In this document: in pieces, positions 1 through 21,177 of the stretch
Numbering within the stretch: position 1 is the first letter of the stretch
How the letters are laid out: every line of letters begins with the position of its first letter
Origin: an uncultured Chloroflexia bacterium
GTDB lineage: Bacteria > Chloroflexota > Limnocylindria > Limnocylindrales > CSP1-4
DNA length: 64,000 bases
Reading direction: 5' to 3'
Assembly: GCA_963829155.1 (NCBI GenBank)
Contig: CAWHIA010000018.1
Location: forward strand, 13,804-77,803
Notes under the pieces: model-generated
The model's database searches: none
Told to the model about the DNA's origin: nothing
What the model saw: only the letters and a program-made list of their open reading frames with translations
Position numbers and translations under genes: made by a program

Positions 1-1030
1 GGGTGATGTCGGCGCGCCACTGCGGCACCCGGGGATGGTTCGGCGAGCCGGTGAACCGGATGTTGACGGTGACCTGGAGCCGATCGGGCAGCAGTCGCCA
101 CGTGAACGCCGCGGGACCGCCCGTGATCGTGCCTTCCGCGCGCTGCTCCCAGTCGAACTGCTCCCGGCCGACATCGACGGGGCCTGACACCGCATCGAGG
201 GCCGTCCAGGTCAGCGGACCCACGACGCCGTCGTCGCCGAGGGGCGGCGTCCTGGAGCGCTGGAACTCCCTGACCGCCTGGCGGGTCTGGCCGCCGAACT
301 TGCCGTCCACCTCGAGCAGGGTCGCGACCTGGTCCGGCGGCACCGTGTTGAGCTTCTGCTGCAGCTCCTCGACCGCCGGGCCCGTGGAGTTGCGGCGGAT
401 CGTCGGATGGATCGTGCCGCCCAGCGGCGCGCCCCGCGGCTCGCCCTCGGCCGGGCCCTCCACGACGCTCCGGCCCTGGCGCGACACCCGCGGCGCGAGC
501 TCGTCGATCTTGGCCCACGTCTCGAGGCCGCAGACCCCGTCGGCCACGAGCGGCGGGTTGGAGGCCTGGAACGAGATCACCGCCGCCGCGGTCATGAGGT
601 CGAACACCGCCGTGATCCGCAGCGGCGGCGTCGCCGCCCCGAGCGCGTTCAGCGCCTGCTGCAGCTGGCCGACCTCCACGCTGGGGCCGTCGCCCTGCCG
701 CAGCACGGTGTGCGTCGGCGCAGCGGGCGCGGCCGGGGCCGCCCCTCCGGGCGCGGCCGGCGCGGCCCCCGGCGCGTCGTCCCGCTGGAGCAGGACCGGC
801 GCGCGCCTGCTGAACAGCGACCCGACGGCGGCGTTGCCGGCGCTCCGCTGGAGCGCCATGACGACCATCGACGACGCGGCGTGCATGGGCAGGCGCCGCG
901 GACCGGCGCCGATCACGGCCAGCTCGGGCGACTCGCCCGGCGCCGCGGCCCGGTCCGTGGCGGCGACCGGGCCGTCCGGCTGTCGCTCCCCGCCCTGGTC
1001 GTTGCTGCGCTGCGTTGCCGTCCCCGCCAT
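1..1030 (-). CDS. Putative CIS cargo/effector, N-terminal part only (gene runs off the left edge): LQRSAGNAAV leader plus two peptidoglycan-binding (PG_binding_1-like) repeats
   Basis: I translated the minus strand from the ATG at 1030-1028. The ORF is absent from the track because it has no stop inside the window. It reads MAGTATQRSN...VVMALQRSAGNAAVGSLF...PVLLQRDD. Two repeats follow: LRQGDGPSVEVGQLQQALNALG...AAAVISFQ, and IRRNSTGPAVEELQQKLN...VDGKFGGQTRQAVREFQRS...GVVGPLTWTAL. Both fit the PG-binding helical repeat. The start lies 5 nt downstream of the DUF4157 gene stop. The third codon position is GC-rich. Confidence 0.7.
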   Translation of the reverse strand, partial: MAGTATQRSNDQGGERQPDGPVAATDRAAAPGESPELAVIGAGPRRLPMHAASSMVVMALQRSAGNAAVGSLFSRRAPVLLQRDDAPGAAPAAPGGAAPAAPAAPTHTVLRQGDGPSVEVGQLQQALNALGAATPPLRITAVFDLMTAAAVISFQASNPPLVADGVCGLETWAKIDELAPRVSRQGRSVVEGPAEGEPRGAPLGGTIHPTIRRNSTGPAVEELQQKLNTVPPDQVATLLEVDGKFGGQTRQAVREFQRSRTPPLGDDGVVGPLTWTALDAVSGPVDVGREQFDWEQRAEGTITGGPAAFTWRLLPDRLQVTVNIRFTGSPNHPRVPQWRADIT

Positions 1031-1034
1031 GCGA

Positions 1035-1742
1035 TCAGGTCCCCGGGACTTCTTCTTCCTCTTCGGGCGTGGCCTCGCGCTGGACGGCGGCCACCGACGC
1101 CGTATCGTCCTCCTCGCGCTGCACCGCCGCGCCGGCGTCCGACGCCGACGGCTGGGCCGAGGAGACGGCCGACATCACCTGGTCGGCGGTCGCGTCCGCG
1201 GCGCGCTCGAACCGGTCGGACGGGTCGCTGACCCGGATGCCGCCCGGCGCGTCCGAGCCGTCCACCGGCCCGCGGGACTGCTGGACGACGTGGCTCAGCT
1301 CGTGCGCGATCGTCCGCTGACCGACCGACGACGCCGGGTCGTACTGGCCGGACTTGAACACGACGTCGGAGCCGACGGTGTAGGCGTTCGCCCCGACAGA
1401 CTCGGCCGACTTCGACGCCCGGTCGTCGGTGTGGACCCGGACGCCTTCGAACGACTGCCCGAAGGCCGACTCCATCGACGTCCGGGTGCCCTCGTCGAGG
1501 GGCGATCCCCCGCCCGACCCGACCACGTCGTGCACCGGCGACGCCTGCTCCTCCTCGCCGGCCAGCATCTGCACCACGCCCGCGTTACCGGCGGTGCGCT
1601 GGAGGTGCATGAGGGTCGCGGCGTCGAGCGCCGGCGAACGGCCGGGGGCGACCGGAGCCTGCTCCCCGGCGGCCGGCACGTGGCCGTCGCGATCGGGCGA
1701 TCGCAGCGCGGCGTGGGACGCGTCCAACTCGAAATCGCGCAT
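1035..1742 (-). CDS. DUF4157-type zincin-like protein (eCIS-associated family)
   Basis: I chose the ATG at 1742 inside ORF 1035..2204 because an AGGAGG lies just upstream on the minus strand. The protein has the leader LMHLQRTAGNAGVV (1575-1604). The DUF4157-like core reads SMESAFGQSFEGVRVHTD...ANAYTVGSDVVF...RTIAHELSHVVQQ, with HELSH at 1290-1304. The tail is acidic and carries two AAVQRE motifs. Confidence 0.85.
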   Translation of the reverse strand: MRDFELDASHAALRSPDRDGHVPAAGEQAPVAPGRSPALDAATLMHLQRTAGNAGVVQMLAGEEEQASPVHDVVGSGGGSPLDEGTRTSMESAFGQSFEGVRVHTDDRASKSAESVGANAYTVGSDVVFKSGQYDPASSVGQRTIAHELSHVVQQSRGPVDGSDAPGGIRVSDPSDRFERAADATADQVMSAVSSAQPSASDAGAAVQREEDDTASVAAVQREATPEEEEEVPGT

Positions 1743-1872
1743 GGCGGTCCTCCTGTTCCACGTGTCAGGATCGGCCACGGCGTCGGCCTCCGCAATGGGC
1801 TCGGACACGACCGCCCGGAAGTCTGCCCCAATGGGCACCGCTGCCGGAGGCGCCCTCGCTAGCATCGGCCGC

Positions 1873-3531
1873 ATGCGAACCCGCGCGGTGCCCGTCCCGG
1901 GGCACCAGGCCGCCGCCGGGCCTGCCGTCGCAGGCCCTCGCCCCGCGCCGGCCGCAGCCCCCGGGACCTCGTCCCTCTCGGCCACGTCGCCCCCCATCGA
2001 GTCCGCGGTCCTCGCCCCGGACGGGCTCGTCGACCTCCAGGCGACCGCCGGCAACCGCGCGACGGTCGAGGCGCTGCAGCGCTCGCCGGCCGCGGGCGCG
2101 GGGCCCGCCCGGCCCACGCCGATCATCGTGCAGCGCGCCGTGTCGGCGGAGCAGGCGACGACCATCGCCCGGCGGCTAGAGGACGCGATGAAGGGCTGGG
2201 GCACCGACGAGGAGGCGATCTACGGAGCGCTCGCCGGCCGGACGGCCGCGGACATGGATGAGATCCGCAAGGCCTACAAGTCCTCCTACAACAAGAACCT
2301 CGACGCGGAGCTGCGCGACGAGCTCAACGACTCGGAGCTGGCCCGGGTCAGCCAGTCGATGGCGCCGACCGCCGACGAATCCAAGCTCACCGAGGCCGAG
2401 CGACTGTCGGCGGCGACGGACCGCGCGAAGGCGGCCGCCGCGCACCTCAAGGAGGCGATGGCCGGCTGGGGGACGGAGGAGGACGAGATCTTCAACGTCC
2501 TCGAGGGTCGCGAGCCCGAGGAGATCCTCGCGATCCAGCGCGAGTACCTCGCTCTCACCGGCAACCACCTGGACCGGGACCTGCAGGACGAGCTGAGCGG
2601 CTCCGACCTGCGGAAGGCGCTCGCGCTGCTCCAGGTGCAGGCCGCGGGCACGTTCACGAACGAGATCGACCAGCACATGACCGAGGGCGAGACGACCACG
2701 GTCCAGGGCCGGTTCGAGTACGTCCTCCAGCAGCGCGAGCTGACGGTCCGCGTGCCGGTGGACTTCAAGCCGGACGCCGGCGTAACCGCGCCGATCGCGA
2801 CCTGGCAGTCGCAGATCGACACGGTCTGGAACCAGTTCGCGGCCGTGGAGAGCGGCGGCCTCAAGGTCCCGATCCGGTTCGGGATCGAGAACCGGGCGGG
2901 CGCCGACAAGTCGATCCGTGTGAAGGACAACAAGGTGCCGGGGACGCAGTCGGTCGAAGACCGGGCGAACGCGGGGATGTGGTTCCCGCTGATGGACGCC
3001 ACCACCGCGCCGCACGAGTTCGGGCACCTCGTCGGCCTCCAGGACGAGTACCAGCGCACGCACGGCGACTACAAGAAGATCACCGGCGAGGACAAGACAG
3101 GCCCCGCCAATGCCTCGGGCAAGACCGCCGCGGAGATCGCGGTCGACCTCCACGCGGCGCTCTACCTCGCCGACGCGACCCAGCGGGCCCCGACGGCCAC
3201 GACGCTGCTGACGACCGTCGGCCTGATCGTCGGCGGGGTCCCGCAGCAGGGCGACTTCGCGCAGGAGGTCCAGAAGGCGTACGACGACAAGTACTCGGGC
3301 TGGTTCAGCAAGTCGCTCGTCCAGGCGATGCGCGACAAGATCCCCGAGGGGAGCAAGTGGACGATCCAGTCGGTGTTCTCGTACGCCAGCCGGAGCATCA
3401 TGGGCAACCCGGAGATCCTGGGCGCCCCGGACCCGCACGACCACGCGGTCGAGCCACGCCACCTCGAGGAGTTCGTGCGCATCGTCCGTCGCGCCTACCC
3501 GGATCTCACCTGGACGGCCGGGTCGCGATGA
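1873..3531 (+). CDS. Putative CIS effector: N-terminal leader, two annexin-type repeats and a HEXXH zinc metallopeptidase domain
   Basis: The ATG at 1873 lies within ORF 1429..3531 and is divergent from the DUF4157 gene. The leader is LVDLQATAGNRATVEALQRS (2035-2067). Two annexin-like repeats span ~2155-2631: ARRLEDAMKGWGTDEEAIYGAL..IRKAYKSSYNKNLDAELRDEL and AAHLKEAMAGWGTEEDEIFNVL..IQREYLALTGNHLDRDLQDELSG. The C-terminal part carries APHEFGHLVGLQDEY, with HEFGH at 3013-3027. Confidence 0.8.
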   Translation: MRTRAVPVPGHQAAAGPAVAGPRPAPAAAPGTSSLSATSPPIESAVLAPDGLVDLQATAGNRATVEALQRSPAAGAGPARPTPIIVQRAVSAEQATTIARRLEDAMKGWGTDEEAIYGALAGRTAADMDEIRKAYKSSYNKNLDAELRDELNDSELARVSQSMAPTADESKLTEAERLSAATDRAKAAAAHLKEAMAGWGTEEDEIFNVLEGREPEEILAIQREYLALTGNHLDRDLQDELSGSDLRKALALLQVQAAGTFTNEIDQHMTEGETTTVQGRFEYVLQQRELTVRVPVDFKPDAGVTAPIATWQSQIDTVWNQFAAVESGGLKVPIRFGIENRAGADKSIRVKDNKVPGTQSVEDRANAGMWFPLMDATTAPHEFGHLVGLQDEYQRTHGDYKKITGEDKTGPANASGKTAAEIAVDLHAALYLADATQRAPTATTLLTTVGLIVGGVPQQGDFAQEVQKAYDDKYSGWFSKSLVQAMRDKIPEGSKWTIQSVFSYASRSIMGNPEILGAPDPHDHAVEPRHLEEFVRIVRRAYPDLTWTAGSR

Positions 3532-4211
3532 CTCTCGTCACGTGGCGGCGCCTGTCGTCGATGCCGCCGCCGGAGCGCGAGATCCTCGAGGTTGAGCCGG
3601 ACGGGTCGTTCCGGCTGTGGCGATCGATCGCGCCGGTCGTCGGGCGGTTCGGCGGGTCGCTCCCGGACGACGCAGCCGCGGATCTCCGCACGCTCGTGGA
3701 GGCCGTCGGGTCGTCGTCGGCGCCGCGCCCGGGCAAGGTGCCTCCCGACGCGAGCGTCGAGCAGCTCGAGATCGCCGGGACGCTGTCCGTGTTCGAGGCC
3801 GATGGGGACGTGGCCGCCCCCTGGGGGGACCTGCTCGCCGCGTGCCGCCGCCTCGCCGATGGGCTCGTGGACCGGCCGCTGGCGGCGATCGCGCTCGAGG
3901 TCGACCTCGCGGACGGTGGTGCGCAGATCCGCCTCGTCCATCGGGGCTCGGGCTCGCTGCCCGTCGAGCTGGCCGCGGCCCGCCTCAAGGTCGCGGTCTG
4001 GCGAGCCATGATCAACGCCGCTAACGCGACGGCGCCGGCCCTCGACCTCGGGCGGGTGGACGCAGGCCCCGGCTGGTCGACGGAGACCGCCGTCGATCTA
4101 CCGGCCCTCGAGCCGGGCGACAAGGTCACGGCCGACGCGCGGTTCATCGCGGACGACGGCGGGGTGTTCATCCCGGTCGCGATGTCGACGACGATCGTCG
4201 TCCCGGGTTGA
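3528..4211 (+). CDS. Hypothetical protein translationally coupled to the annexin-metalloprotease gene (candidate immunity/inhibitor or chaperone)
   Basis: The ATG at 3528 overlaps the upstream stop (ATGA). The product is 227 aa, MTLVTWRRLSSMPPPEREILEVEPDGSF... The third codon position is GC-rich. I recognised no motif. Confidence 0.6.
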   Translation: MTLVTWRRLSSMPPPEREILEVEPDGSFRLWRSIAPVVGRFGGSLPDDAAADLRTLVEAVGSSSAPRPGKVPPDASVEQLEIAGTLSVFEADGDVAAPWGDLLAACRRLADGLVDRPLAAIALEVDLADGGAQIRLVHRGSGSLPVELAAARLKVAVWRAMINAANATAPALDLGRVDAGPGWSTETAVDLPALEPGDKVTADARFIADDGGVFIPVAMSTTIVVPG

Positions 4212-4227
4212 GCCGCGGGATCGCGGC
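4212..4227. terminator. Possible bidirectional hairpin between convergent genes
   Basis: GCCGCG-GGAT-CGCGGC is a perfect 6-bp GC stem with a 4-nt loop. It fills the 19-bp gap between the stops at 4211 (+) and 4231 (-). There is no U-tract. Confidence 0.3.
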
Positions 4228-4230
4228 CGG

Positions 4231-6372
4231 CTAGCCGTTCACCAGGTCGTAGTACTCGCCGAACTCGGCCTCCACCGTCAGTCGCCCGAGCTTGCGGTAC
4301 TCGCGTTCCGTGGCGCGCACGAGGTCGGGCATCGCGACCGGGCGGTCCTCCGCCGCGGCGAGGTACGCGGCCGTCACGCACACGTTCCGGATATTGCCGC
4401 CCGAGATCTTGAACCGGCGGGCGAGGAAGTCGAGGTCGATGTCGTCGGCGACCGGCAGGTCCGGCGCGAGGTTCGCCGCCCACAGCCGGCGACGATGCTC
4501 CTCCTCGGGCATCGGGAAGTCGATGATCGCGTCCAGGCGCCGCACGAAGGCCTCGTCGACGTTCGAGCGCAGGTTGGTCGTCAGGACGGCCAGCCCGTCG
4601 AAGCGCTCCATGCGCTGGAGCAGGTAGGCGACCTCGACGTTGGCGTACCGGTCGCGAGCGTCCTTGACCTCGGACCGCTTGCCGAACAGCGCGTCCGCCT
4701 CGTCGAACAGCAGGATCCCGTTGACCCGGTCGGCCTCCGTGAAGATCCGGTCCAGGTTCTTCTCGGTCTCGCCGATGTACTTGTCGACGACCGTGGACAG
4801 GTCGATCACGTAGACGTCGAGCGCGAGGTCGTGGCCGACGACCTCCGCCGACATCGTCTTGCCGGTCCCCGAGTCGCCGGCGAACAGCGCGGTGACGCCG
4901 ACGCCGCGTGCGCCCTTGGTGCCCATGTGCCACTCGCCGATGACCCGGTCGCGGTGGCGAGCCCGGGCCGTGAGCTCGCGCAGCTGGGCCTCGACCACCG
5001 AGGGGAGCACGAGGTCGTCCCAGCCCACGGTCGGCTCGATCCGGCGCGCGAGCCGCTCGAGACCCGCGGCGTTCTGGGCCCGCGCGCCGCCCGCGACGTC
5101 CGTGATCGTCATCGGACGGTTCTCGGCGGTCGCCGCGTGGCGGGCGGCCCGCGCGGCCCGGTCGATCTGCTCGGGGGTGAGGCGGAACGCGATCGTGGCG
5201 GCGGCCGGGTCGAAGCCCGCCGGCGCGTCCCCGTTGAGCGAGTCGACCCACAGCTGGTGCCGCCGGACGATCGAGGGCACGGGCGCGTCCACGATGAGCG
5301 GCGGCTCGCGCGACCAGGCCGGGTCCCAGTCGCGGCCGCCGACGAGGATCACCGGCCCCGGCTGCTCCGCGAACGCGCGGACCGCGGCCGCGCCGCGCTC
5401 GACCAGCGGCTCCACCGGGCCGACCACCAGGCCGGCGCCGCGCAGCCTCGCCTCGCGCGACGCCGCGGCAGCGAGCAGCACCGGGTCGTCGCCCGCCGAC
5501 AGGCGCCCGAGGTCGAGCGCGATGGCCGGCCGGCCGAGCCGAGCCATCGCCGTCCAGCCGAGCGACCGCCCGGACGCCCCCGGACGCTCGCGCACGTAGA
5601 CCAGCGACTGCCCGGCGGCCAGCCCGCGCGCGACCACCTCGACCTCGTCGACGTCCACCGGGACCGACGAGGCCAGCAGCGCCTCGATGGCGGGGTCGGG
5701 GCTGTCGTCGCCCAGCAGGTGGGCCGCCACCCGGTCGGGCACCCGGAGCGGCCGGGTCAGCGAGGGGCGGTCGACGTCCTCCACCAGGAGCAGGCGTCCG
5801 GCGACCAGCGGCGCGAGCGGGCCGAGCCGTTCGCGGAGCGGCGCGCCGGCGGTGGACGCCGTCACGCCACCGGGTCCCGTCGTCGCCCCGCACAGCTCGA
5901 TCGCCAGCCCGACGCTCGCCCGGCGCCGCGAGACGTCGTCGTGGAGGTAGCCGTAGAGCCGCTCGAACCGGGGGTCGAGGTCGGGGGCGAGCGCGACCAG
6001 CAGCAGGTCGACGTCCACGGGCTCGAGACCGAAGGCCCGCGCGAGGCCCCGCAGGCGGACGTCGCTCCCCGCCCGCTCGGCCTCGTCCGCGCGCGTCTCG
6101 AGCGCATCACGCAGGTGCGCGACCGCCTCATCGGCCTCCGGGGGCACGAGCGGGCCGCCGGGCCGGTCGAGCAGCCCGTCCACCTGCTCGTCGGAGATGT
6201 ACAGGCCGCGGAACCGATCGCCGGGGTCGGCGTCGACGGCGCGCCGCCGGTCCACGGCCGCGCGCACGCGCTGCTCGATCAGCGACAGCCGGCCCAGGAG
6301 GTACAGGAGGGACGGGTCCGACGGGCCGAGCGCGTGCTCCGCGTCCGCGCCGGGCGGAGCGGCGCCCGTCAT
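4231..6372 (-). CDS. CIS-associated AAA+ ATPase (Afp15/Pvc15-like)
   Basis: The ORF is an intact 713 aa. The C-terminal AAA+ module has Walker A GDSGTGKTM, Walker B ILLFDEADALFG, and then YANVEVAYLLQRME...TTNLRSNVDEAFVRR. A long N-terminal non-ATPase region precedes it. The gene is adjacent to the DUF4255 gene, as in other CIS loci. Confidence 0.9.
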   Translation of the reverse strand: MTGAAPPGADAEHALGPSDPSLLYLLGRLSLIEQRVRAAVDRRRAVDADPGDRFRGLYISDEQVDGLLDRPGGPLVPPEADEAVAHLRDALETRADEAERAGSDVRLRGLARAFGLEPVDVDLLLVALAPDLDPRFERLYGYLHDDVSRRRASVGLAIELCGATTGPGGVTASTAGAPLRERLGPLAPLVAGRLLLVEDVDRPSLTRPLRVPDRVAAHLLGDDSPDPAIEALLASSVPVDVDEVEVVARGLAAGQSLVYVRERPGASGRSLGWTAMARLGRPAIALDLGRLSAGDDPVLLAAAASREARLRGAGLVVGPVEPLVERGAAAVRAFAEQPGPVILVGGRDWDPAWSREPPLIVDAPVPSIVRRHQLWVDSLNGDAPAGFDPAAATIAFRLTPEQIDRAARAARHAATAENRPMTITDVAGGARAQNAAGLERLARRIEPTVGWDDLVLPSVVEAQLRELTARARHRDRVIGEWHMGTKGARGVGVTALFAGDSGTGKTMSAEVVGHDLALDVYVIDLSTVVDKYIGETEKNLDRIFTEADRVNGILLFDEADALFGKRSEVKDARDRYANVEVAYLLQRMERFDGLAVLTTNLRSNVDEAFVRRLDAIIDFPMPEEEHRRRLWAANLAPDLPVADDIDLDFLARRFKISGGNIRNVCVTAAYLAAAEDRPVAMPDLVRATEREYRKLGRLTVEAEFGEYYDLVNG

Positions 6373-6426: not shown

Positions 6427-7206
6427 TCACCGGCGGGGCGGACGACGGACGCCGCTCACGCGGATGCGCACGCCCCCGTCCTTGGCGCCCGCGTTGGCCG
6501 GCAGCAGCTCGGTCGTCGAGGCGTCGAGCTCGATCGCCGGTCCCGCGGCGCCACCCGGGCTCTTGCGGGACTCGCTGGCGCCGCCGGTGGACGAGATCCC
6601 GATCGACGGCCCCTCCTGGACCGGCGGCCCGATGTAGGCGCTGGAGTCGACGACGATCGGCGCCGTGACGACGAGGTCGAGCGAGGGCTTGAGCTCGCCG
6701 CCCAGCGCCGACCAGATGTCCGCGAGGGACCGCTCCTGGCTGGCCGGCTGGCCGACCTCGATGTACACGGGCAGGTCGGCCTCGTTGAGCGGGGCATCGA
6801 GGTCTTCGGCCTTGATGAACGGGTTGCGGAGGAAGCAGGCGAGCAGCGACGACAGCAGCCGGTGCTCGTCCTCGGGACGCTGCGTCCACGCCGTCACCAG
6901 GTAGGCGAGCCGGAACCGCCGCGGGGGCTGGTGGCGCCGGGTCACGGTCCCGTTGGCATCCCGGACGTCCTCCCAGGCGGGCACGCGCCGCTGGAGGTCC
7001 TCGCGGATGTCGTACAGGTACAGGTCGACCGCGGGCCCGCTCCGCCTGGCGACCCAGTCCTTCGTGGGCGCCTCGAACACGAGGTCGACGGACGACCCGT
7101 TGAGCGCGTCGCGCTTGACCAGCTTCTCGAGCAGCTGATCGACGTCGTGGATCACCCGCCGATCGTCGGCCCGCGCGGCGTCCCACGCCAGCCGGTCGCG
7201 GGGCAT
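6427..7206 (-). CDS. DUF4255 protein (Afp16/Pvc16-like tail terminator/cap)
   Basis: ORF 6427..7338 reads ...VIHDVDQLLEKLVKR...VDLVFEAPTKDWV...VDLYLYDIRED...FRLAYLVTAWT..EDEHRLLS, which is typical of DUF4255. The start is uncertain: the ATG at 7206 or the GTG at 7155 (VIHDVDQLL). The gene is divergent from the sheath operon. Confidence 0.8.
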   Translation of the reverse strand: MPRDRLAWDAARADDRRVIHDVDQLLEKLVKRDALNGSSVDLVFEAPTKDWVARRSGPAVDLYLYDIREDLQRRVPAWEDVRDANGTVTRRHQPPRRFRLAYLVTAWTQRPEDEHRLLSSLLACFLRNPFIKAEDLDAPLNEADLPVYIEVGQPASQERSLADIWSALGGELKPSLDLVVTAPIVVDSSAYIGPPVQEGPSIGISSTGGASESRKSPGGAAGPAIELDASTTELLPANAGAKDGGVRIRVSGVRRPPRR

Positions 7207-7340
7207 CCGTCCGGGCAGCCCTCGTCGCCCCTTCGGGCAATGGTGCCCGCCCTCCCGCGCGCCCTGTCGGGCCTTGTCCGACCCCGTCGCGGGTGGGACG
7301 GTCAGCGGGCTGGGATCCATGCATCCGGAAAGGGACACGT

Positions 7341-8843
7341 ATGCCGAACTATCTGTCGCCCGGCGTGTACGTCGAGGAGGTGGAGGCCGGGTCCCGTCCG
7401 ATCGAGGGCGTGGGCACCGCAGTCGCCGCCTTCGTCGGGCTCGCCGGCCGCGGGCCTGCGAACACGCCGACGCTCGTCACCAACTGGAACCAGTTCACCT
7501 CCACGTTCGGTGACTTCATCGAGGGCTCGTACCTCGCCCACGCCGTCTACGGCTACTTCCTGAACGGCGGCGGCGCCGCGTACGTCGTGCGCGTGGGCGC
7601 CGACGGCGTCGTGCCCACCGCCACCGCCGAGGTGCCGAGCTCGACCGACAAGGCCAAGCCGGCGTTCCAGGTCGCGGCCCTCGAGGCCGGCCCGGAAGGC
7701 AACGACATCAGCGTCGACGTCCAGCCGGCGGCCGACGAGGGCTCGTTCAAGCTCGTCGTCAAGCGCGGCGGCCGGGAGGTCGAGTCGTTCGACAACCTGA
7801 CGACCGCGAAGGGCAAGCAGAACGTCGCCACGGTCGTCAAGGCGCAGTCGAAGACGATCACGATCGAAGAGGCGGGCGCGCTCGCTCCCGCCGCGGGCAC
7901 GACCTCGCTCGCCGGCGGCTCGGCCGCGGTCCCCTCGCGCGTGACGCCCGACGACTACGTCGGCAACTCGGCCGACCGGACCGGCTTCGCCGGCCTCGAG
8001 GCGGTGGACGAGGTCACGATGCTGGCCGTCCCCGACCTGATGGCGGTCTACGAGCAGGGGATGATCGACCTGGAGGGCCTGCAGGCCGTCCATCTCGCGA
8101 TGATCGCCCACTGCGAGCTCATGGGCGACCGCGTCGCCATCCTCGACGCGCCGCCAGGGCTCAACGCGCAGCAGATCAAGGAGTGGCGGGTCGACAAGGC
8201 CGGCTACGACAGCAAGTACGCGACCCTCTACTGGCCCTGGATCAAGGTCTTCGACCCACTGTCCGGCCAGGCCAAGTTCGTGCCGCCGTCCGGCCACGTG
8301 GGCGGGATCTGGGCGCGCAACGACGACACCCGCGGCGTCCACAAGGCGCCGGCCAACGAGGTCGTCCGCGGCGCGATCAGCCTCGCGCTCAACCTGACCA
8401 AGGCCGAGCACGACCAGCTCAACCCCAACGGGATCAACTGCATCCGGGCGTTCCCCGGCCGCGGCATCCGGGTGTGGGGCGCACGGACGATCTCGAGCGA
8501 CCCGTCGTGGCGCTACCTGAACGTCCGGCGGCTGTTCAACTACATCGAGGAGTCGATCTTCGAGGGCACCCAGTGGGTGGTCTTCGAGCCCAACGACCAG
8601 CGCCTGTGGGGCCGCGTGAAGCGGACCATCAACGCGTTCCTCCTGCGGGTCTGGCGCGACGGCGCGCTGTTCGGCGCGACGCCCGACCAGGCGTTCTTCG
8701 TCAAGTGCGACGAGGAGAACAACCCGCCCGAGGTCCGCGACGCGGGGCAGCTGATCATCGACATCGGCATCGCCCCCGTGAAGCCGGCCGAGTTCGTGGT
8801 GTTCCGCATCGCCCAGTTCTCGGGCTCGCCGGACGCCGAGTAG
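7341..8843 (+). CDS. Contractile tail sheath protein
   Basis: The ATG at 7341 gives MPNYLSPGVYVEEVEAGSRPIEGVGTAVAAFVG..., the canonical phage/CIS sheath N-terminus. The C-terminus reads ...GINCIRAFPGRGIRVWGARTIS...WRYLNVRRLFNYIEESI. The product is 500 aa. Confidence 0.95.
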   Translation: MPNYLSPGVYVEEVEAGSRPIEGVGTAVAAFVGLAGRGPANTPTLVTNWNQFTSTFGDFIEGSYLAHAVYGYFLNGGGAAYVVRVGADGVVPTATAEVPSSTDKAKPAFQVAALEAGPEGNDISVDVQPAADEGSFKLVVKRGGREVESFDNLTTAKGKQNVATVVKAQSKTITIEEAGALAPAAGTTSLAGGSAAVPSRVTPDDYVGNSADRTGFAGLEAVDEVTMLAVPDLMAVYEQGMIDLEGLQAVHLAMIAHCELMGDRVAILDAPPGLNAQQIKEWRVDKAGYDSKYATLYWPWIKVFDPLSGQAKFVPPSGHVGGIWARNDDTRGVHKAPANEVVRGAISLALNLTKAEHDQLNPNGINCIRAFPGRGIRVWGARTISSDPSWRYLNVRRLFNYIEESIFEGTQWVVFEPNDQRLWGRVKRTINAFLLRVWRDGALFGATPDQAFFVKCDEENNPPEVRDAGQLIIDIGIAPVKPAEFVVFRIAQFSGSPDAE

Positions 8844-8885
8844 CCGTCGACATGACCACACCCATGGAAGGCCACGGAGGCACCT

Positions 8886-9320
8886 ATGCCCACGACTGAC
8901 CCGCTGCTGCAAGGCAACGTCCTGCTGGACATCGACGGCGTCGGCGTCGTCGCGAACTTCACCTCCGTCTCGGGCGTCTCGAGCGAGGTCGAGATCGTCG
9001 ACAACCCGTTCGTCAACGACCAGGGCAAGGTCACCATCGGCAAGCTCCCGGGCAAGCCGAAGACCCCGACGGTCACGCTCAAGCGCGGCCTCACGGGGGC
9101 GACCGAGATCTGGGACTGGCACAGCGCCGTCATGCAGGGGAACCCGGACCGCCGCAACGGCTCGGTGATCCTCATGAACACGATCGGCGAGGAGATCCTT
9201 CGCTACAACTTCACCAACGCGATGGTGTCCAAGATCAGCCTCTCCGAGGGCGGCGCTACGACCAGCGGCGTCCAGATCGAGGAGGCGACCCTCGCCTGCG
9301 AGACCCTCGTCAAGGCCTAG
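8886..9320 (+). CDS. Tail tube protein (T4 gp19-like / Afp1-type)
   Basis: The 144 aa product follows the sheath gene directly. It reads ...LLDIDGVGVVANFTSVSGVSSEVEIVD...TVTLKRGLTGATEIWDWH...GSVILMN..GEEILRYNFTNAMVSKISL, the conserved tube fold signature. Confidence 0.9.
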   Translation: MPTTDPLLQGNVLLDIDGVGVVANFTSVSGVSSEVEIVDNPFVNDQGKVTIGKLPGKPKTPTVTLKRGLTGATEIWDWHSAVMQGNPDRRNGSVILMNTIGEEILRYNFTNAMVSKISLSEGGATTSGVQIEEATLACETLVKA

Positions 9321-9324
9321 GCCG

Positions 9325-9759
9325 ATGACCCTCGCCCTCCCGCCCGAGCTCGGCGACGAGCGCAGGAGCACGAACGCGTCCGACGCCCTCCGGACGGAAT
9401 ACGCGTTCGTGCTGCCCCGCGGCTTCGTCGACGGGTCCGGCACCGTCCACCGCGACGGCGTCATGCGCCTCGCGACCGCGCGCGACGAGATCATCCCGCA
9501 GCGGGACCCTCGCGTCCGCGAGAACGAGGCCTACCTGACGATCCTCCTCCTGTCCCGCGTCGTGACCCGGCTCGGGACGCTGCCCCAGGTGCACACCGGG
9601 GTGATCGAGGGGCTGTTCGCGTCCGACCTCGCCTTCCTGCAGGACCTGTACCGCAGGATCAACCAGGAGGGCCACACCCAGGCCTCGGTCACCTGTCCCG
9701 CGTGCAACCACGCGTTCACGGTCGACGTGGCGGGTGAGCAGCGCCTGGGGGAATCGTGA
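9325..9759 (+). CDS. Conserved CIS hypothetical protein in the tail-assembly-chaperone position
   Basis: The 144 aa product lies between the tube and tape-measure-like genes. It reads ...FVLPRGFVDGSGTVHRDGVMRLATARDEI...YLTILLLSRVV..., with a single CPAC near the C-terminus. The function is inferred only from its position. Confidence 0.55.
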   Translation: MTLALPPELGDERRSTNASDALRTEYAFVLPRGFVDGSGTVHRDGVMRLATARDEIIPQRDPRVRENEAYLTILLLSRVVTRLGTLPQVHTGVIEGLFASDLAFLQDLYRRINQEGHTQASVTCPACNHAFTVDVAGEQRLGES

Positions 9760-9914
9760 CGTACGCGACCGACCGGCTGTTCGAGGAGGTCGCGTACGTC
9801 GCCTATCACTTCCACTGGCCGATGGACTCGATCCTCGACCTGGAGCACCCGCTCCGGCTGCGGTTCGTGGATGAGATCGGTCGCATCAACCGGCGTCTGA
9901 CCGAGGAGGAGTGA
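9756..9914 (+). CDS. Small conserved-looking ORF (52 aa) between chaperone-position gene and tape-measure-like gene
   Basis: This ORF is not in the track. The GTG at 9756 overlaps the upstream stop (GTGA), and its own stop overlaps the next GTG at 9911 (GTGA). My translation is VTYATDRLFEEVAYVAYHFHWPMDSILDLEHPLRLRFVDEIGRINRRLTEEE. It is not low-complexity, and the third codon position is GC-rich. Confidence 0.5.
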   Translation: MTYATDRLFEEVAYVAYHFHWPMDSILDLEHPLRLRFVDEIGRINRRLTEEE

Positions 9915-11891
9915 GTCCCGTGCGTCTGCCGTGGCCGTTCGGCCGCAGCGAGAGCGACCGCGGGGCGTCCTCCGGCTCGGGCGCGGACGCCGGTGGTGGC
10001 GCGCCCGGCGCCGGCTCGGCGGTCGGTCGGCGCGTCGTCGTCGCCGGCCGAGGCGCCGATCCGGCCCACGGGCGCGTGGCGGACGCTGCCGCCGATCCAG
10101 CGCTCGTCGGGCCCACCGCCGGTCGTGGCGCCGGCCGCGCCGTTCCTCGCCGACGTGCCCGGCCACGCCCCGCTGCCGCCGATCGTCACGCCGCTGGGCC
10201 ACGAGTCGAGCCCGAGCGCGCCCGCCGGTCTCGTCGTCGCGCACCCGCACGCCGTCCCGAGCCTCACCTCGAGCGCGCCGCTCCCCGGCGAGGCCCGTGC
10301 AGCGGCACGCCGCGGGCGGCGAGTCCGCCTCGACCGCGGCGCCGGCCTGGGAGGCCGAGGAGGCGCCCGTCGTCTCGCGCCAGGCGGAGCCCGCGTCGAC
10401 GGGGGCCGCGTCGCCCTCGTCGTGGACGCCGGCCGCCGCGCCCGAGCTCCCGCCGATCCGCACCGTGCCGGCCGTGGCGCCGTCGGCCGTCGCGACGCCC
10501 GCGTCGCGTCCGCTGACCCAGACCGCGCCGTCCCTGGTCCCGTTGTCTTCGGGGCGGTCCGGCGGCACGACGCCGTCCGCGGAGGGCGCGCGATCGAGGC
10601 CGGCCGACATCGCGCTGCCGATCCAGGCGAGCGGGCGCGTCCCGACGTCGGTCTCCCCGTCGCCGTCCGCGGCCCCGGGTGCCGGTCGGGCGCCGCTTGC
10701 GCCGGTCCGGCGGTTCGCCGAGCTCCCGGTGGAGGCGCCGGCGCCGCCCGTCCAGCGCGAGGCCACCGGCCGCCGCGCCGGCCTCGGCGCCCCGCTGCCC
10801 GCGGCCCCCGACTCCGCCGTTGCCGAGCGCCTGCCGATGCGCCGCCCGGCGCCCGGCCTCCCGGTGACGCCCGCGTCGCCCGCCGCGTCCCCGGCCACCG
10901 TCTCGCGGCTGTCGGACGGGACGCACGACACCCACGATCCGGCCCCGGCGATCGCCGCCGCGCCCGCCGCCCCTGCTCGCCCGCTCCCGATCCTGCCGGT
11001 CGCGCGCCAGCGCCAGGACGCCGCGCCGACGTCCCCGGGCGCCGCGACCGTCGTCGCGCGCGACCGCGGCCCGCTACGGCGAGCCCGGCGCGGTCCGCGG
11101 CCTCGTCCGCTCCGACCGTCTCCCGGTCCGCCACGACGGTCCTGCCCACCGTCGGCGCGCGGCCGCTGCGCCCGGCCGTGACCGCGGCGCCCTCCGGCCC
11201 CGGCCGCTCGCAGCCGCCGACCGTCGGTGCACCCGCGTCCGGCGCGGACGCCGAGGCGCCGATGCCCGTCGCCGCACGCTGGGACGCCGGCGACACCCTG
11301 CCGTCGACGGTGACCTCGCTGCCGGCGTTCCCGCACTCGGAGCCCGATCTGCCGGTCCAGCTGTCGCCGGTCGGCTCGGCGCCGCGGCCGGCCGCCGTGC
11401 CCCAGGCCGCGAACGGGGCCCGCGAGATCGTGTTCCCGCCGCGCGACGGCGGCGATGCCCCCGAGTGGTCGTCGGGCGGCTTCCCGGCGGCGCCGGCGCC
11501 GGCCCAGGAGCGCCCGTCCGCGCCGTCCCGGACCGCGCCGCTGACCCTCGCCCGATCCGCGGTCGCCGCCCCGGCACAGCCCCAGGCGCCGGCCCCCGCG
11601 AGCACGCCGGTGGTCGCCCGGATCGTCGCCGACCCCGCCTCGCCCGGCACGCCGCCGGTCGTCCAGACGCTGCCCGCCGGCGGCGGCATCCCGGTCGCGA
11701 CGTTCACGGCGACCCCCATCGTCCAGCGCGAGGAGGCCGCGGCGCCGACCCCGCCGCAGCCGTCGAACGGCCGCTCCGACCGGGAGCTCGACGAGCTCGC
11801 CAAGGCGCTGTTCGGGCGCATCCGGACGCAGCTCAAGTCCGAGGTCATCCACGAGCGCGAGGCCAAGGGCCTCGGCTTCGACGCGTTCTAG
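9911..11891 (+). CDS. Pro/Ala-rich tape-measure-like protein (Afp14 position), reading frame apparently switches three times
   Basis: The plausible protein text moves between frames. Frame 2 runs from GTG 9911 (VSPVRLPWPFGRSESDRG...). Frame 0 runs from ~10030 (APIRPTGAWRTLPPIQRS...SAPLPGE). Frame 1 runs from ~10295 (PVQRHAAGGESAST...PPVQREATGRRAGLGAPL...). Frame 0 resumes from ~11075 and ends ...ATPIVQREEAAAPTPP..SDRELDELAKALFGRIRTQLKSEVIHEREAKGLGFDAF at 11891. Off-frame stretches are Arg-rich junk. The role is assigned by position between the tube and baseplate genes. Confidence 0.6.
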
Positions 11892-11903
11892 CAGGGAGCA
11901 CCG

Positions 11904-12389
11904 ATGGGCGATCCGGCAGTCAGCATCGCGTACAAGTGCACGATCGACGGCTTCATCCCGCTCGGGATCTGGACCAAGATCGAGGGCCTGGGCTTCGAGT
12001 ACGAGATCAAGGAGTTCCGCGAGGGCGGCATCAACGGCTTCACCCACAAGGTCCTCGGCCCCTGCAAGTACACGAACCTGCGGCTCAGCCGGCCGGTCGA
12101 CTCGACGTCCGAGCTCCTGATGCTCTGGCTCCAGAGCAACATGATCAAGGTCATCCCGCAGACGATGTCGATCACGGCGATGACCATGAACGGCGACGAG
12201 ATCACGACCTGGAACCTCGCCGGCGTGATCCCCGTGAAGTGGACCGGCCCCTCGCTCGACATCATGAGCAACAACGTCGCCACCGAGACGCTCGAGGTCA
12301 CCTACCAGGAGATCATCGGGCTCGGCGCGCTGGGCGGGCTGCTGGCGGGCGCGATGTCCGTCTCGGCCAACGTGAGCGTCGGGTTCTGA
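11904..12389 (+). CDS. Second tube-like protein (Afp5-type tube initiator)
   Basis: The 161 aa product reads ...CTIDGFIPLGIWTKIEGLGFEYEIKEFREGGINGFTHKVLGPCKYTNLRLSRPV...WNLAGVIPVKWTGPSLD, a gp19-like tube fold signature. Confidence 0.85.
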   Translation: MGDPAVSIAYKCTIDGFIPLGIWTKIEGLGFEYEIKEFREGGINGFTHKVLGPCKYTNLRLSRPVDSTSELLMLWLQSNMIKVIPQTMSITAMTMNGDEITTWNLAGVIPVKWTGPSLDIMSNNVATETLEVTYQEIIGLGALGGLLAGAMSVSANVSVGF

Positions 12390-12399
12390 GGGCCCGGCG

Positions 12400-13137
12400 A
12401 TGGTGATGGACGCGGTCGGCGGGGCCGTATCGGCGGTCGCCGGGGCGCTCGGGCTGATCAAGTCCGACAAGGCGAAGCTCGTGTGCGTGGGCAGCAACAT
12501 GCCCGACGGCCCGCACGAGATCGAGTGCGCGTTCAACCCGACCGACTACACGCTGACCCAGACCGTCAGCGTCCCCGCGACGACGTCCCCCGCCAAGGAG
12601 GGCGGCCAGCAGCAGTACAGCGGCACCGGGGCGCTCACGTTCTCGACCAACCTGTTCTTCGACGCGTTCTCGGAGGCCAAGGGCGACGTCACGCCCAAGA
12701 TCACCACGCTGCTCAGCTGGATGAAGCCCACCAACAAGTCGAGCTCGAACGGGCGGCACTCGCCGCCGCTCGTCCAGTTCAAGTGGGGCGGCAACCCGCA
12801 GCTGGATCAGCTGAAGGGGTTCATCACCAGCTCGACGGTCAAGTACACGCTGTTCCGGATCGACGGCACGCCCGTCCGGGCCGAGGTCGCGATCACGATC
12901 ACCAGCCAGGCCGACCCCGAGACGGGCCAGAACCCGACCTCGCAGGCCACCAACAGCCGGCGCGTCCACCAGGTGATCGACGGCGACACGCTGCAGTCGG
13001 TCGCCTACCGGGAGCTCGGCAAGCCGCAGTACTGGCGCGCGATCGCCGAGCTCAACGCCATCGACGACCCGATGCGCCTGTCCCCGGGGTCGGTCCTCCT
13101 GATCCCCAGCGTCGCCGACGCGACGAAGAGCGCCTGA
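12400..13137 (+). CDS. LysM-domain baseplate hub protein (Afp7/Pvc7-like)
   Basis: The 245 aa product has a tube-like N-terminal part (ECAFNPTDYTLTQ...PPLVQFKWGG). Its C-terminus carries LysM: HQVIDGDTLQSVAYRELGKPQYWRAIAELNAIDDPMRLSPGSVLLIP. Confidence 0.85.
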   Translation: MVMDAVGGAVSAVAGALGLIKSDKAKLVCVGSNMPDGPHEIECAFNPTDYTLTQTVSVPATTSPAKEGGQQQYSGTGALTFSTNLFFDAFSEAKGDVTPKITTLLSWMKPTNKSSSNGRHSPPLVQFKWGGNPQLDQLKGFITSSTVKYTLFRIDGTPVRAEVAITITSQADPETGQNPTSQATNSRRVHQVIDGDTLQSVAYRELGKPQYWRAIAELNAIDDPMRLSPGSVLLIPSVADATKSA

Positions 13138-13143
13138 GCCGCC

Positions 13144-14814: not shown

Positions 14815-14827
14815 AGGACGCTGAGCA

Positions 14828-15624: not shown

Positions 15625-15626
15625 TC

Positions 15627-18484: not shown

Positions 18485-21177
<2,693 letters not shown>

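Follow-up and report, generated by a model that had tools for sequence, protein, structure and literature searches.

A candidate annexin-zincin cargo protein and its putative cognate inhibitor beside a contractile injection system of an uncultured Chloroflexota bacterium

What may be the function of a bacterial protein that joins annexin repeats to a HEXXH zinc-protease motif, and of the small protein encoded by the gene that overlaps with its stop codon? Such a gene pair was present in the window (the whole stretch of 64,000 nucleotides analysed here, originating from an uncultured Chloroflexia bacterium). [quoted passage not shown] Its stop codon (3529-3531) is in frame with the ATG at 1873, the start that is kept across gene A homologues in alignments of homologues and loci. 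Two starts further upstream (1795 and 1831) were rejected on the basis of an alignment of 11 loci. The longer call of 578 amino acids from 1795 is probably wrong, as it translates a conserved DNA element of the divergent promoter region (1743..1872), delineated from the same alignment. This region contains a conserved block of 29 nucleotides (1809-1837) with a palindrome (TGCCCcaatGGGCA; 1824-1837), and a TAGCAT box about 7 nucleotides before the ATG at 1873. The peptide MGSxTTARKSAPMG only seems conserved because of this underlying DNA block, of which the palindrome lies upstream of the TAnnAT box. The upstream element is unique in the window and occurs once in each of 10 related loci; a simple promoter and terminator scan of positions 1600-4400 found nothing. 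The architecture of gene A was retrieved in more than 140 homologues, and the AlphaFold2 (AF2) model of protein A had a mean pLDDT of 84.9. Gene A is a real fusion of two annexin repeats with a zinc-protease-like domain outside the known classes; this fusion and the coupled reading frame behind it, both described in an earlier note on this DNA, were confirmed by the reading frames, the profiles, the structural model, and the invariance of the motif. The features of genes A and B, namely the annexin repeats, the protease motif, the ATGA overlap, and the codon statistics, are far beyond chance.

The two annexin repeats (2146..2628, forward strand; residues 92-162 and 174-252) were supported by Pfam, a PDB profile search, the AF2 model, Foldseek, and conservation. 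Pfam family Annexin (PF00191) matched protein A in two stretches with an E value of 1e-26 (93.2 bits, cutoff 25), and the family profile matched PDB annexins with an E value of 1e-71. In the AF2 model, each repeat consisted of five helices with a pLDDT around 90, namely residues 92-106, 113-120, 125-139, 143-150, and 153-162 for the first repeat and residues 174-196, 203-210, 215-229, 233-240, and 243-252 for the second one. A Foldseek search with the whole-protein model returned annexins as best matches (probability 1.00), and annexins filled the list. The annexin call of the earlier note was thus right, and the structure check that it proposed for the annexin fold yielded two repeats of the annexin type. 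Type II Ca2+ sites were intact in both repeats (G108-x-G110-T111...E150 and G198-x-G200-T201...E240); indeed, GxGT with an acidic residue (D or E) 38 positions further on was found in both repeats of all 51 homologues. Relatives in Ilumatobacter possess three or four annexin repeats. The idea that annexins are rare in bacteria did not hold, since annexin repeats recur among eCIS cargo proteins of many phyla, as had already been noted (PMC8213781, PMC3894181); annexin is listed among the eCIS-associated domains (PMC8213781), and eCIS-linked markers occurred within 10 kb of the annexin gene in 51 of the 72 annexin loci.

The zincin-like domain (2629..3528, forward strand; about 300 amino acids), delineated by the AF2 model and by family and fold searches, belongs to no curated family. 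According to the model, a three-stranded beta-meander precedes a helix/sheet core, to which the active-site helix belongs, and the C-terminal half is helical. The translated active-site motif (HEFGHLVGLQDEY; 3013..3051, forward strand), of which residues 378-386 form the predicted helix, contains the proposed zinc ligands H381, H385, and D391, the putative catalytic E382, and Y393. This corresponds with a HEXXHXXGXXD motif with a tyrosine two residues past the aspartate. Residues H381, E382, H385, G388, D391, E392, and Y393 were invariant in 51 of 51 homologues, and the motif HEFGHxxGLxDEY was kept in the paralogues with peptidoglycan-binding (PG-binding) domains (about 30% identity) and in actinobacterial relatives as well. 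Further invariant residues (3400..3462, forward strand) comprised S-x-M510-G511, a candidate Met-turn, and H522-x-H524...R529-H530. The active-site motif aligned with the snapalysin motif HETGHVLGLPDHYQ of 1c7k/4hx3 and with the InhA motif HEYGHDLGLPDDY. Yet, the assignment of a zincin family, for which the earlier note had proposed structural comparison, was not obtained. There was no match of the domain in Pfam at default thresholds, in NCBIfam, or in PADLOC, and Foldseek searches of the C-terminal model against PDB and BFVD returned nothing at an E value of 0.001 or below, the best metzincins (fragilysin and a baculovirus MMP) having probabilities of 0.2-0.5. Among the sub-threshold Pfam matches of 17 zincin members, metallopeptidase families were the only ones that recurred, namely M6 in nine members (best E value 9e-4), M64 in five (best E value 2e-4), and M7 in two (E value 0.02 or above), with none of the 17 members above the Pfam gathering threshold for M6 (PF05547) or M64 (PF09471). 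Similarly, a PDB profile search matched snapalysin over 19 residues (E value 0.36), and hhalign of the zincin family against an InhA-like protein aligned just 36 columns with a probability of 55%. Judged from its sequence, the domain resembles M6, M7, and M64 at the active-site motif only and is outside every curated family. Glutamate dehydrogenases, the top PDB matches of the C-terminal domain in Foldseek, had probabilities below 0.1 and were considered noise, and a weak tblastn match of this domain at 60004-60339 lies inside a gene for an FAD-dependent monooxygenase and was attributed to chance.

Catalysis by the zincin-like domain is predicted from its motif. If the HEXXH domain were a catalytically dead binding or structural module, as its want of a significant fold or family match could suggest, the putative metal ligands and the catalytic glutamate would hardly be kept in every one of the 51 homologues and also in paralogues of about 30% identity. 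Such invariance marks an active site under selection, so that the HEXXH domain named in the earlier note behaves as a conserved zincin active site, and a dead module is extremely unlikely. The zincin family comprises about 630 sequence clusters at 50% identity. The domain is nearly always C-terminal, often after PG_binding_1 and/or DUF4157 (eCIS_core), with PG_binding_1 as the commonest direct fusion partner ahead of it. In distant members, this position behind eCIS_core and/or PG_binding_1 makes it look like a polymorphic toxin domain.

The genes A and B are located between a DUF4157/eCIS_core gene and those for an AAA+ ATPase, a Pvc16_N terminator, and a complete sheath-tube-baseplate operon. 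The stand-alone DUF4157/eCIS_core protein (1035..1742, reverse strand; 235 amino acids; Pfam PF13699, E value 6e-32) carries HELSH, the motif LMHLQRTAGNAGV at its N-terminus, and a tail with AVQRE repeats. Next to it, a paralogous cargo gene (1..1030, reverse strand), recognized by its motif and domains, runs off the window; its first 343 amino acids encompass the N-terminal motif VMALQRSAGNAAV, a pair of PG_binding_1 domains, and the first part of the zincin domain that protein A has as well. Related loci possess a second B-like gene behind the gene for this PG-binding paralogue. On the other side, a Pvc15/Alg15-type AAA+ ATPase with an N-terminal winged-helix domain (4231..6372, reverse strand; Pfam WHD and AAA) and a Pvc16_N tail terminator (6427..7338, reverse strand; Pfam E value 7e-40) precede the eCIS structural operon (7341..18124, forward strand), which codes for sheath and tube proteins, a LysM-tube protein, a gpD/VgrG-like hub, PAAR, gp25, Baseplate_J, and Tail_P2_I. 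Genes for Zn-ribbon proteins occur downstream of the baseplate genes. The anti-phage proteins IetA/IteA, tried for the AAA+ ATPase, scored far below cutoffs, reflecting generic AAA similarity and no defence system. This complete eCIS cluster was a context absent from the earlier note, of which the wording 'once delivered' fits the setting, as the pair adjoins the AAA+ ATPase and terminator of a full eCIS and protein A bears the shared N-terminal motif.

The N-terminal region of protein A (1873..2136, forward strand; residues 1-88), delimited by pLDDT and conservation, is predicted to be disordered except for a helix at residues 49-70; residues 1-44 and 72-87 had a pLDDT below 50. It ends in the near-invariant Q87-R88 (VQR), and G60 and N61 are conserved too. 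The region contains LQATAGNRA (2035..2061, forward strand), a candidate cargo-loading motif. In a six-frame translation, the pattern [LMIV]Q..[AVILS]GN.[AGT] occurred in the window only at 2035-2061 (forward strand), 1578-1604 (reverse strand), and 827-853 (reverse strand), which correspond with protein A, the DUF4157 protein, and the PG-binding paralogue. Across the window and related loci, LQxxAGNxA was confined to the N-termini of these three cargo-like proteins (15 sites, none elsewhere in any frame). A weak tblastn match of the N-terminal region at 42770-42841 lies inside a gene of the enolase superfamily and was ascribed to chance. Loading sequences of eCIS cargo proteins are disordered, system-specific, N-terminal, and alike between the cargos of one system, and require an AAA+ ATPase (PMC11495950, 10.64898/2026.05.27.728243); the Pvc15/Alg15 class of ATPases is required for cargo loading in PVC and AlgoCIS (same sources). 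Streptomyces CIS effectors likewise have similar N-termini (PMC10066040). The shared LQxxAGNxA N-terminus fits a system-specific cargo-loading sequence. A full-text literature search with the motif strings found no paper.

Alternatively, genes A and B may form an ordinary operon of a protease and its partner, of which the adjacency to eCIS genes in Chloroflexota is incidental and the motif serves, for instance, export or anchoring. Indeed, in Ilumatobacteraceae as well as in cultured Actinoplanes, Agromyces, and Jatrophihabitans, there is no eCIS gene within 10 kb of the zincin-B pair, so that cargo status in these lineages depends solely on the N-terminal motif. In contrast, the same synteny was found in every Chloroflexota relative on a long contig (e.g., loci L001, L004, L005, L007-L010, L013, L017, and L023) and was kept among homologues just 45-85% identical, the motif occurs on the DUF4157 protein too, which is an eCIS-specific marker (PMC8213781), and in distant zincin proteins, eCIS_core is part of the polypeptide itself. 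Moreover, no Sec or Tat signal was found in the sequence of protein A, of which the N-terminal region is hydrophilic (maximal Kyte-Doolittle value over a 19-residue window 1.27). An incidental association is therefore very unlikely.

Gene B (3528..4211, forward strand) codes for a protein of 227 amino acids, a candidate cognate inhibitor or immunity protein of the zincin, given the gene overlap, the codon statistics, the linkage, and the co-divergence. As reported in the earlier note, the start codon of B lies within the stop codon of A (ATGA; 3528-3531), although this overlap alone is not diagnostic of an immunity or chaperone arrangement, contrary to what had been suggested. Codon statistics of B were of the coding type (GC3 0.93, GC1 0.77, GC2 0.54). 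Both A and B are predicted to be cytoplasmic, B possessing neither a signal peptide nor a transmembrane segment. The B family, with 104 homologues, is previously undescribed and uncurated. Twenty B members matched no Pfam family down to an E value of 10, no match of B occurred in NCBIfam or PADLOC, and two PDB profile searches gave no chain beyond chance; the best PDB match, type II secretion system protein M, had an E value of 0.17 and was judged a chance hit. The N-terminal half of B may resemble emfourin-type inhibitors; with Pfam and PDB profiles, there was no detectable similarity of B to described inhibitor families or solved inhibitor structures. A B gene was found directly downstream of 30 of the 32 zincin open reading frames (28 of 29 where the contig leaves room), and this adjacency holds for any N-terminal modules and with or without an eCIS nearby, B following the zincin domain and not the annexin module. 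Furthermore, the identity matrices of zincin and B were correlated (Mantel r = 0.88, a value reached by none of 2000 permutations, for a set that takes in within-genome paralogue pairs), and the mean identity was lower for B than for the zincin (0.33 versus 0.41), B thus evolving faster. Zincin and B were also duplicated together as one cassette, and in L085 and L086, orphan B genes were found with no zincin at all. Hence, the specific partner protein postulated earlier is strongly supported by adjacency, co-divergence, and orphan copies. Protein B, always travelling with the protease domain, is probably its inhibitor, a role suggested by the strict linkage to the zincin domain, the parallel divergence, and the orphan copies.

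The same strict linkage and parallel divergence would also be expected if B, instead of being an inhibitor, were dedicated to the zincin domain as a chaperone or maturation factor and kept it soluble or loading-competent, and cargo proteins are thought to be loaded unfolded, which may call for holding factors. However, orphan B genes without a zincin are hard to explain in this way, B lacks the LQxxAGNxA N-terminal motif and matches no known chaperone family, and the eCIS literature examined mentions no dedicated effector chaperone besides the AAA+ ATPase. No known immunity or protease-inhibitor family was matched by B either. A chaperone function has a rather small probability.

Taken together, the reading that we favour, with moderate confidence, is that protein A is a modular cargo or effector of the adjacent contractile injection system and that B is its cognate cytoplasmic inhibitor or immunity protein. 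Firstly, A is synthesized without a Sec or Tat signal, as seen from its sequence, and its disordered N-terminus of about 90 amino acids with LQxxAGNxA would act as a system-specific loading sequence on which the adjacent Pvc15-like AAA+ ATPase operates; this role is suggested by the shared motif, its position, and the published work on eCIS loading. Secondly, after release, the annexin repeats may bind membranes with acidic phospholipids in a Ca2+-dependent way and hold the enzyme there, as the conservation of canonical type II Ca2+ sites suggests. Thirdly, the C-terminal domain would act as a zinc metallopeptidase with an active site like those of the snapalysin/InhA type, with His381, His385, and Asp391 as ligands, Glu382 as general base, and Tyr393 nearby, and cleave a protein or peptide in the target. 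Lastly, B would be made in step with A via the overlapping stop and start codons, bind the zincin, keep it inactive in the producer, and protect cells carrying B. Some observations sit uneasily with this cargo and inhibitor reading. The frequent PG_binding_1 partner points to the cell wall and not to a membrane or host protein; a cytoplasmic B is an odd immunity protein for an enzyme acting outside the membrane; a folding or loading chaperone would be an equally good reading of B; and, since the producer itself is where related Gram-positive CIS act (PMC10066040), delivery to another cell is not assured.

The latter observation leads to self-directed lysis or death, whereby the CIS fires in the producer, as in Streptomyces, annexin or PG-binding adaptors bring the peptidase to the own membrane or wall for regulated death or particle release, and B is the antidote until firing. 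In Gram-positive filamentous bacteria, CIS are cytoplasmic and mediate cell death, and envelope-targeting effectors have been proposed (PMC10066040; PMC10020575), while the Zn-ribbon proteins of the window are like the type IId 'fibre' proteins (PMC10020575). The frequent position of the zincin directly after PG_binding_1, the cytoplasmic nature of both A and B, and the acidic lipids that the inner leaflet would offer to an annexin agree with this scenario as well. Orphan B genes, however, better fit protection from toxins of others, and Ca2+ is scarce in the bacterial cytoplasm, the conserved Ca2+ sites better fitting an extracellular or target environment; self-directed death has a small but appreciable probability. 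A bolder version, which we regard as quite improbable, holds that the annexin pair is a bacterial sensor of membrane damage and Ca2+ in such a death module. The CIS of these monoderm Chloroflexota and Actinobacteria would fire inside the producer, Ca2+ influx at the wound would recruit the annexin-zincin, the PG-binding zincin would be drawn to the wall, and both would dismantle the own envelope, with B as cytoplasmic antidote and annexin as a general CIS cargo adaptor across many phyla. If true, the world of injection systems would be where most bacterial annexins belong, and perhaps also where the membrane-repair role of the fold originated.

The occurrence of annexin at eCIS loci and annexin-metalloprotease fusions are already known (PMC8213781, PMC3894181). 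So far, only a small number of eCIS effectors are characterised, and the literature searched contained none from Chloroflexota. The present locus offers a clear N-terminal motif that the cargo-like proteins of one system all have in common, a zincin family that is large, uncurated, and used as C-terminal effector domain, a B family that may represent a new class of protein inhibitors of metalloproteases, and a testable case for the role of annexin repeats in bacteria. Cultured carriers of the zincin-B pair (Actinoplanes spp., Agromyces spp., and Jatrophihabitans cynanchi) make experiments possible, and the motif and the inhibitor could aid engineered cargo loading and the safe production of protease payloads.

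Compared with known systems, protein A, a candidate eCIS cargo, shares with eCIS-associated toxins (AlgoCIS Cgo1/Cgo2 and PVC Pdp1/Pnf) the location beside the AAA+ ATPase and terminator of the eCIS cluster, a disordered N-terminus that resembles those of other cargos of the system, a neighbouring gene for DUF4157, a variable C-terminal enzymatic domain, and the absence of a Sec signal. It differs in that its effector is a zincin outside the known classes, in that an annexin pair is inserted between N-terminus and effector, and in that DUF4157 is on a separate protein. Also, the N-terminal motif of A is clear and conserved, whereas the signals of PVC and Afp are reported to have no detectable conservation of a specific sequence (PMC11297309). 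Bacterial annexins fused to metalloprotease or toxin domains have been reported, such as the DUF4157-annexin-Peptidase_M90 protein of Haliangium ochraceum (Kodavali et al. 2014, PMC3894181). Like A, these combine annexin and a HEXXH peptidase in one polypeptide, and their annexin part has been proposed to function in delivery or at membranes, but the peptidase of A is neither DUF4157 nor M90, its repeats are only two, its lineage is Chloroflexota/Acidimicrobiia, and it has a conserved partner gene and an explicit eCIS setting. With snapalysin (M7), immune inhibitor A (M6), and M64, the zincin shares HExxHxxGLxD(E/D/H)Y, in which Asp is probably the third zinc ligand and a Tyr follows two residues further on, although the likeness is confined to about 20-36 residues, below Pfam thresholds and with no significant structural match, and its approximately 300 amino acids contrast with the 132-134 of the solved snapalysin chains. 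Similarly, A and B resemble the effector-immunity pairs of polymorphic toxins and T6SS by gene linkage and divergence, a toxin-domain gene being followed by a small, fast-evolving, and co-diverging partner, with duplication as a unit and orphan partners; in contrast, B belongs to no known immunity or inhibitor family and is cytoplasmic despite the frequent fusion of the enzyme to a domain that binds the cell wall, neutralisation by B being a prediction. Finally, eukaryotic annexins and protein A have the five-helix repeat fold, the GxGT...D/E Ca2+ sites, and a highly significant sequence similarity in common, whereas A contains only two repeats instead of the canonical four-repeat core, set between a loading region and an enzyme domain, from where they are predicted to bind lipids.

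Gene A (1873 - 3531, +; 552 amino acids) probably encodes a modular cargo of the adjacent extracellular contractile injection system (eCIS), the product of gene B (3528 - 4211, +; 227 amino acids) being the partner that would hold its C-terminal zincin domain inactive. The genes around A and B form a complete eCIS-type cluster, a setting that went unseen in the earlier note, which described the annexin repeats, the HEXXH domain, and the overlap of the two genes. This cluster comprises a divergently oriented eCIS_core/DUF4157 gene (1035 - 1742, -; E 6e-32) and, on the basis of Pfam matches, genes for an AAA+ ATPase with a winged-helix domain (4231 - 6372, -), a Pvc16_N terminator (6427 - 7338, -), and the structural operon (7341 - 18124, +) with sheath, tube proteins, LysM-tube, gpD hub, PAAR, gp25, Baseplate_J, and Tail_P2_I. 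Amid the tube genes, a 632-amino-acid ORF (9993 - 11891, +; G+C about 80%) of low complexity and without Pfam match is probably the tape-measure protein; an ORF of 659 - 680 amino acids, also without Pfam match, was found at the equivalent position in three related loci (L001, L004, and L005). A BTAD/Trans_reg_C regulator is encoded at 21371 - 23419 (-). The closest relatives of A occur in Candidatus Limnocylindrales and uncultured Chloroflexia metagenome-assembled genomes (MAGs; 85% identity), and all Chloroflexota relatives on long contigs, even those of only 45% identity, retained the gene order: B', a PG-binding(-annexin)-zincin gene, and DUF4157 read leftwards, annexin-zincin and B read rightwards from the same divergent promoter, AAA and Pvc16 read leftwards again, and the sheath gene rightwards. 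In the window, the PG-binding paralogue (1 - 1030, -) runs beyond the left edge and encodes a protein in which the N-terminal motif and two PG_binding_1 domains precede the first part of the same kind of zincin domain as in A; many relatives' versions carry annexin repeats as well. As this paralogue is followed in related loci by its own B-like gene, the locus contains two zincin-partner cassettes in divergent orientation.

The window has a G+C content of about 72%, and the frame of A extends uninterrupted from 1429 to its stop codon (3529 - 3531), with in-frame ATG codons at 1795, 1831, and 1873 ahead of the conserved part. Most homologues start at the position of ATG 1873 (MRTHA, MQTRA, MHTQ), and these starts, together with the intergenic alignment, make the start chosen in the earlier note the best one. 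A gene call of 578 amino acids (P0001) is probably too long, since the apparent coding conservation upstream of ATG 1873 is due to a conserved DNA block, as revealed by aligning the divergent intergenic region of 11 loci. This 29-nucleotide block (GACCGCCCGGAAGTCTGCCCCAATGGGCA; 1809 - 1837), occurring once only in the window, contains the palindrome TGCCCcaatGGGCA (1824 - 1837; inverted repeat TGCCC-caat-GGGCA) and was kept in 10 - 11 loci whose proteins are just 45 - 85% identical. It is likely an operator for the regulator of the cluster. A TAnnAT box at about 1860 - 1865, about 7 nucleotides 5' of ATG 1873, was present too, and the leader of the A mRNA is likely very short.

The two annexin repeats seen earlier in A were recovered by Pfam (PF00191, two stretches, E 1e-26), and a family profile of 51 sequences matched solved annexins at E 1e-71. 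The AlphaFold2 model of A (mean pLDDT 84.9, pTM 0.76) displays two five-helix repeats (residues 92 - 162 and 174 - 252), for which Foldseek returned annexins with a probability of 1.0. The type II calcium site (GxGT, with an acidic residue 38 positions on) is intact in both repeats, its key positions being held in 51/51 homologues. A genome scan with the pattern GTDEEA[IV]Y, hence biased towards annexins resembling the query, retrieved 72 distinct loci with annexin genes, spread over many phyla. In 51 of them, eCIS-linked markers lay at most 10 kb away, and 49 had DUF4157; in 36 of the 81 annexin ORFs, the repeats directly followed DUF4157 and preceded a C-terminal region of about 150 - 500 amino acids. 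Annexin repeat pairs were encountered as a recurrent middle module of DUF4157 cargo proteins (related loci L027 - L079, many phyla), in the order N-terminal region, DUF4157, two to four annexin repeats, and a variable C-terminal domain; such genes adjoin eCIS AAA+ ATPase genes in Nitrospira, Proteobacteria, Acidobacteriota, Bacteroidota, Planctomycetota, and others.

The HEXXH motif noticed before in the C-terminal domain, which spans residues 253 - 552, was located at nucleotides 3013 - 3051 (HEFGHLVGLQDEY). Neither Pfam nor NCBIfam assigned this domain to a family, and in PDB its profile matched only the snapalysin motif HETGHVLGLPDHYQ (E 0.36); Y393 of A occupies the position of the Tyr in the D-H-Y of snapalysin. 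Among 17 zincin members scanned singly, the sub-threshold Pfam families that recurred were metallopeptidases only, namely M6 (9/17, best E 9e-4), M64 (5/17, best E 2e-4), and M7 (2/17), and hhalign against a genuine InhA/M6 protein aligned 36 columns around HEYGHDLGLPDDY with a probability of 55%. The assignment by fold that the earlier note had envisaged was not obtained, as Foldseek of a dedicated domain model (pLDDT 79.9) returned nothing significant in PDB or BFVD; metzincins (profragilysin-3, baculovirus MMPs) were the only enzyme class recurring among its weak matches (probability 0.2 - 0.5). Given the resemblance in motif and the lack of a significant family or fold match, the domain is, from its sequence, a zincin by motif only, outside every curated family. 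H381, E382, H385, G388, D391, E392, and Y393 are invariant among the homologues of A, with H381, H385, and D391 as the likely ligands and E382 as the likely base; that the domain is a dead enzyme is hardly credible. Exhaustive profile searching across 1.84 billion representative proteins yielded 633 zincin clusters at E <=1e-3 and 78 at E <=1e-30. The domain almost always stands at the C-terminus, and 10/10 distant members sampled had PG_binding_1 immediately before it, an eCIS_core domain at the N-terminus, or both, a layout that, judged by domain order, is that of a polymorphic effector domain. One gene of a Chitinophagales MAG (L031:9365-11059) combines in one polypeptide an N-terminal region with DUF4157, a pair of annexin repeats, and a zincin-like domain of reduced length (HEFGHVLGLYDEYDGG); it lies within a run of DUF4157 genes, adjoins an AAA+ ATPase gene, and is not followed by a B gene.

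The start codon of B overlaps the stop codon of A (ATGA, 3528 - 3531), as had been noted, and B has codon statistics of the coding type. Its homologues (15 in a single-sequence search, 104 in a profile search) are all stand-alone proteins of about 215 - 250 amino acids, annotated as hypothetical and without Pfam domain, and no relatives were found in Pfam, NCBIfam, PADLOC, or PDB. When 82 fetched loci were scanned with purpose-built HMMs, duplicate contigs being removed, a B gene stood immediately 3' of 30/32 zincin ORFs, or 28/29 where the contig leaves room, the sole true exception being the shortened, divergent zincin of a Chitinophagales DUF4157-annexin protein. This pairing holds whether the zincin is of the annexin type, belongs to the PG-binding paralogue with its own B', or is encoded, far from any eCIS gene, by the PG-binding-zincin genes that cultured Actinoplanes, Agromyces, and Jatrophihabitans possess, indicating that B tracks the zincin domain and not the annexin module or the injection system; that A and B themselves have no link to the eCIS is very unlikely. 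Actinoplanes sp. CA-030573, Actinoplanes tereljensis, and Jatrophihabitans cynanchi are among the cultivable carriers. Across 28 zincin/B pairs, among them within-genome paralogues that diverged in parallel, the identity matrices of the two proteins were correlated (r = 0.88; reached by 0/2000 permutations), B evolving faster than the zincin. Furthermore, two of five additional B-centred look-ups revealed B genes with no zincin in the surrounding 6 kb, even when matches up to E 10 were admitted (L085:6001-6756 and L086:6001-6693). These are reminiscent of orphan immunity genes, and one is flanked by tRNA synthetase genes. Strict adjacency, co-divergence, faster evolution, and orphans together typify immunity or inhibitor proteins. 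A role of B as dedicated chaperone would account for its adjacency and co-divergence, but not for the orphan copies, and is considered rather unlikely. A search of B for a signal peptide or membrane segment found neither. Its cytoplasmic location, the strong association of the zincin with PG_binding_1, and the cytoplasmic contractile injection systems (CIS) of Streptomyces (PMC10066040, PMC10020575) would fit A and B as a self-directed lysis or death module, the main alternative, which nevertheless seems unlikely.

For the favoured reading of A as an injected cargo, a loading sequence may be present. The first 90 or so residues of A are predicted to be disordered, except for a helix (49 - 70) bearing LQATAGNRA, with equivalents in the DUF4157 protein (LMHLQRTAGNAGV) and the left-edge gene (VMALQRSAGNAAV; 1 - 1030, -). 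The pattern [LMIV]Q..[AVILS]GN.[AGT] was confined to these three cargo-like N-termini in a six-frame translation of the window and to the N-termini of equivalent proteins in six related loci (15 sites in total, zero elsewhere). Cargos of eCIS possess disordered N-terminal loading sequences that are alike within one system and not between systems (10.64898/2026.05.27.728243), loading needs a Pvc15/Alg15-type AAA+ ATPase (10.64898/2026.05.27.728243; PMC11495950), and Streptomyces CIS effectors have 'a highly similar N terminus' in common (PMC10066040). This published work and the shared motif suggest that the motif-bearing region of A serves as loading sequence for the adjacent system. Further downstream, Q87-R88 is at least 90% conserved in the disordered linker right before the annexin domain (residues 86 - 88, nucleotides 2128 - 2136). 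AVQRE occurs twice in the tail of the DUF4157 protein (about 1040 - 1130, -) and LLQRDD at residues about 80 - 83 of the PG-binding paralogue, the tripeptide [VIL]QR marking domain boundaries. [VILM]Q[RK] was 2.9 times commoner in cargo-type than in structural eCIS ORFs and lay at most 25 residues ahead of the annexin start in 48/81 ORFs. Processing, perhaps by the DUF4157 peptidase, may take place at this tripeptide. As a cargo, A would be loaded through its N-terminal region with the AAA+ ATPase, its annexin pair would tether it to acidic-phospholipid membranes where calcium is present, and its zincin would cleave a substrate, while B would block zincin activity inside the producer and shield carriers.

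Proteins with N-terminal zinc-ribbon domains encoded 3' of the baseplate genes (18485 - 21177, +; 24544 - 26007, -), one with a NADase_transloc/discoidin-like domain and another with PD40 beta-propeller repeats, recall the Cys-rich, membrane-anchored 'fibre' proteins of the Streptomyces type IId CIS. Annexin is among the eukaryote-like eCIS-associated domains listed by Geller et al. (PMC8213781), and fusions of bacterial annexins with DUF4157, Peptidase_M90, and toxin domains were described by Kodavali et al. (PMC3894181), who proposed a function in delivery. Annexins at eCIS loci and annexin-peptidase fusions were known already, as were eCIS effectors that combine an adaptor module with a cognate partner. 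For PVC and Afp signals, no specific conserved sequence was detected (PMC11297309), and a full-text search for the present motif strings found no paper. New are the zincin and B families, both absent from Pfam and NCBIfam, their near-obligate pairing, the explicit N-terminal motif, and the paralogous double cassette.
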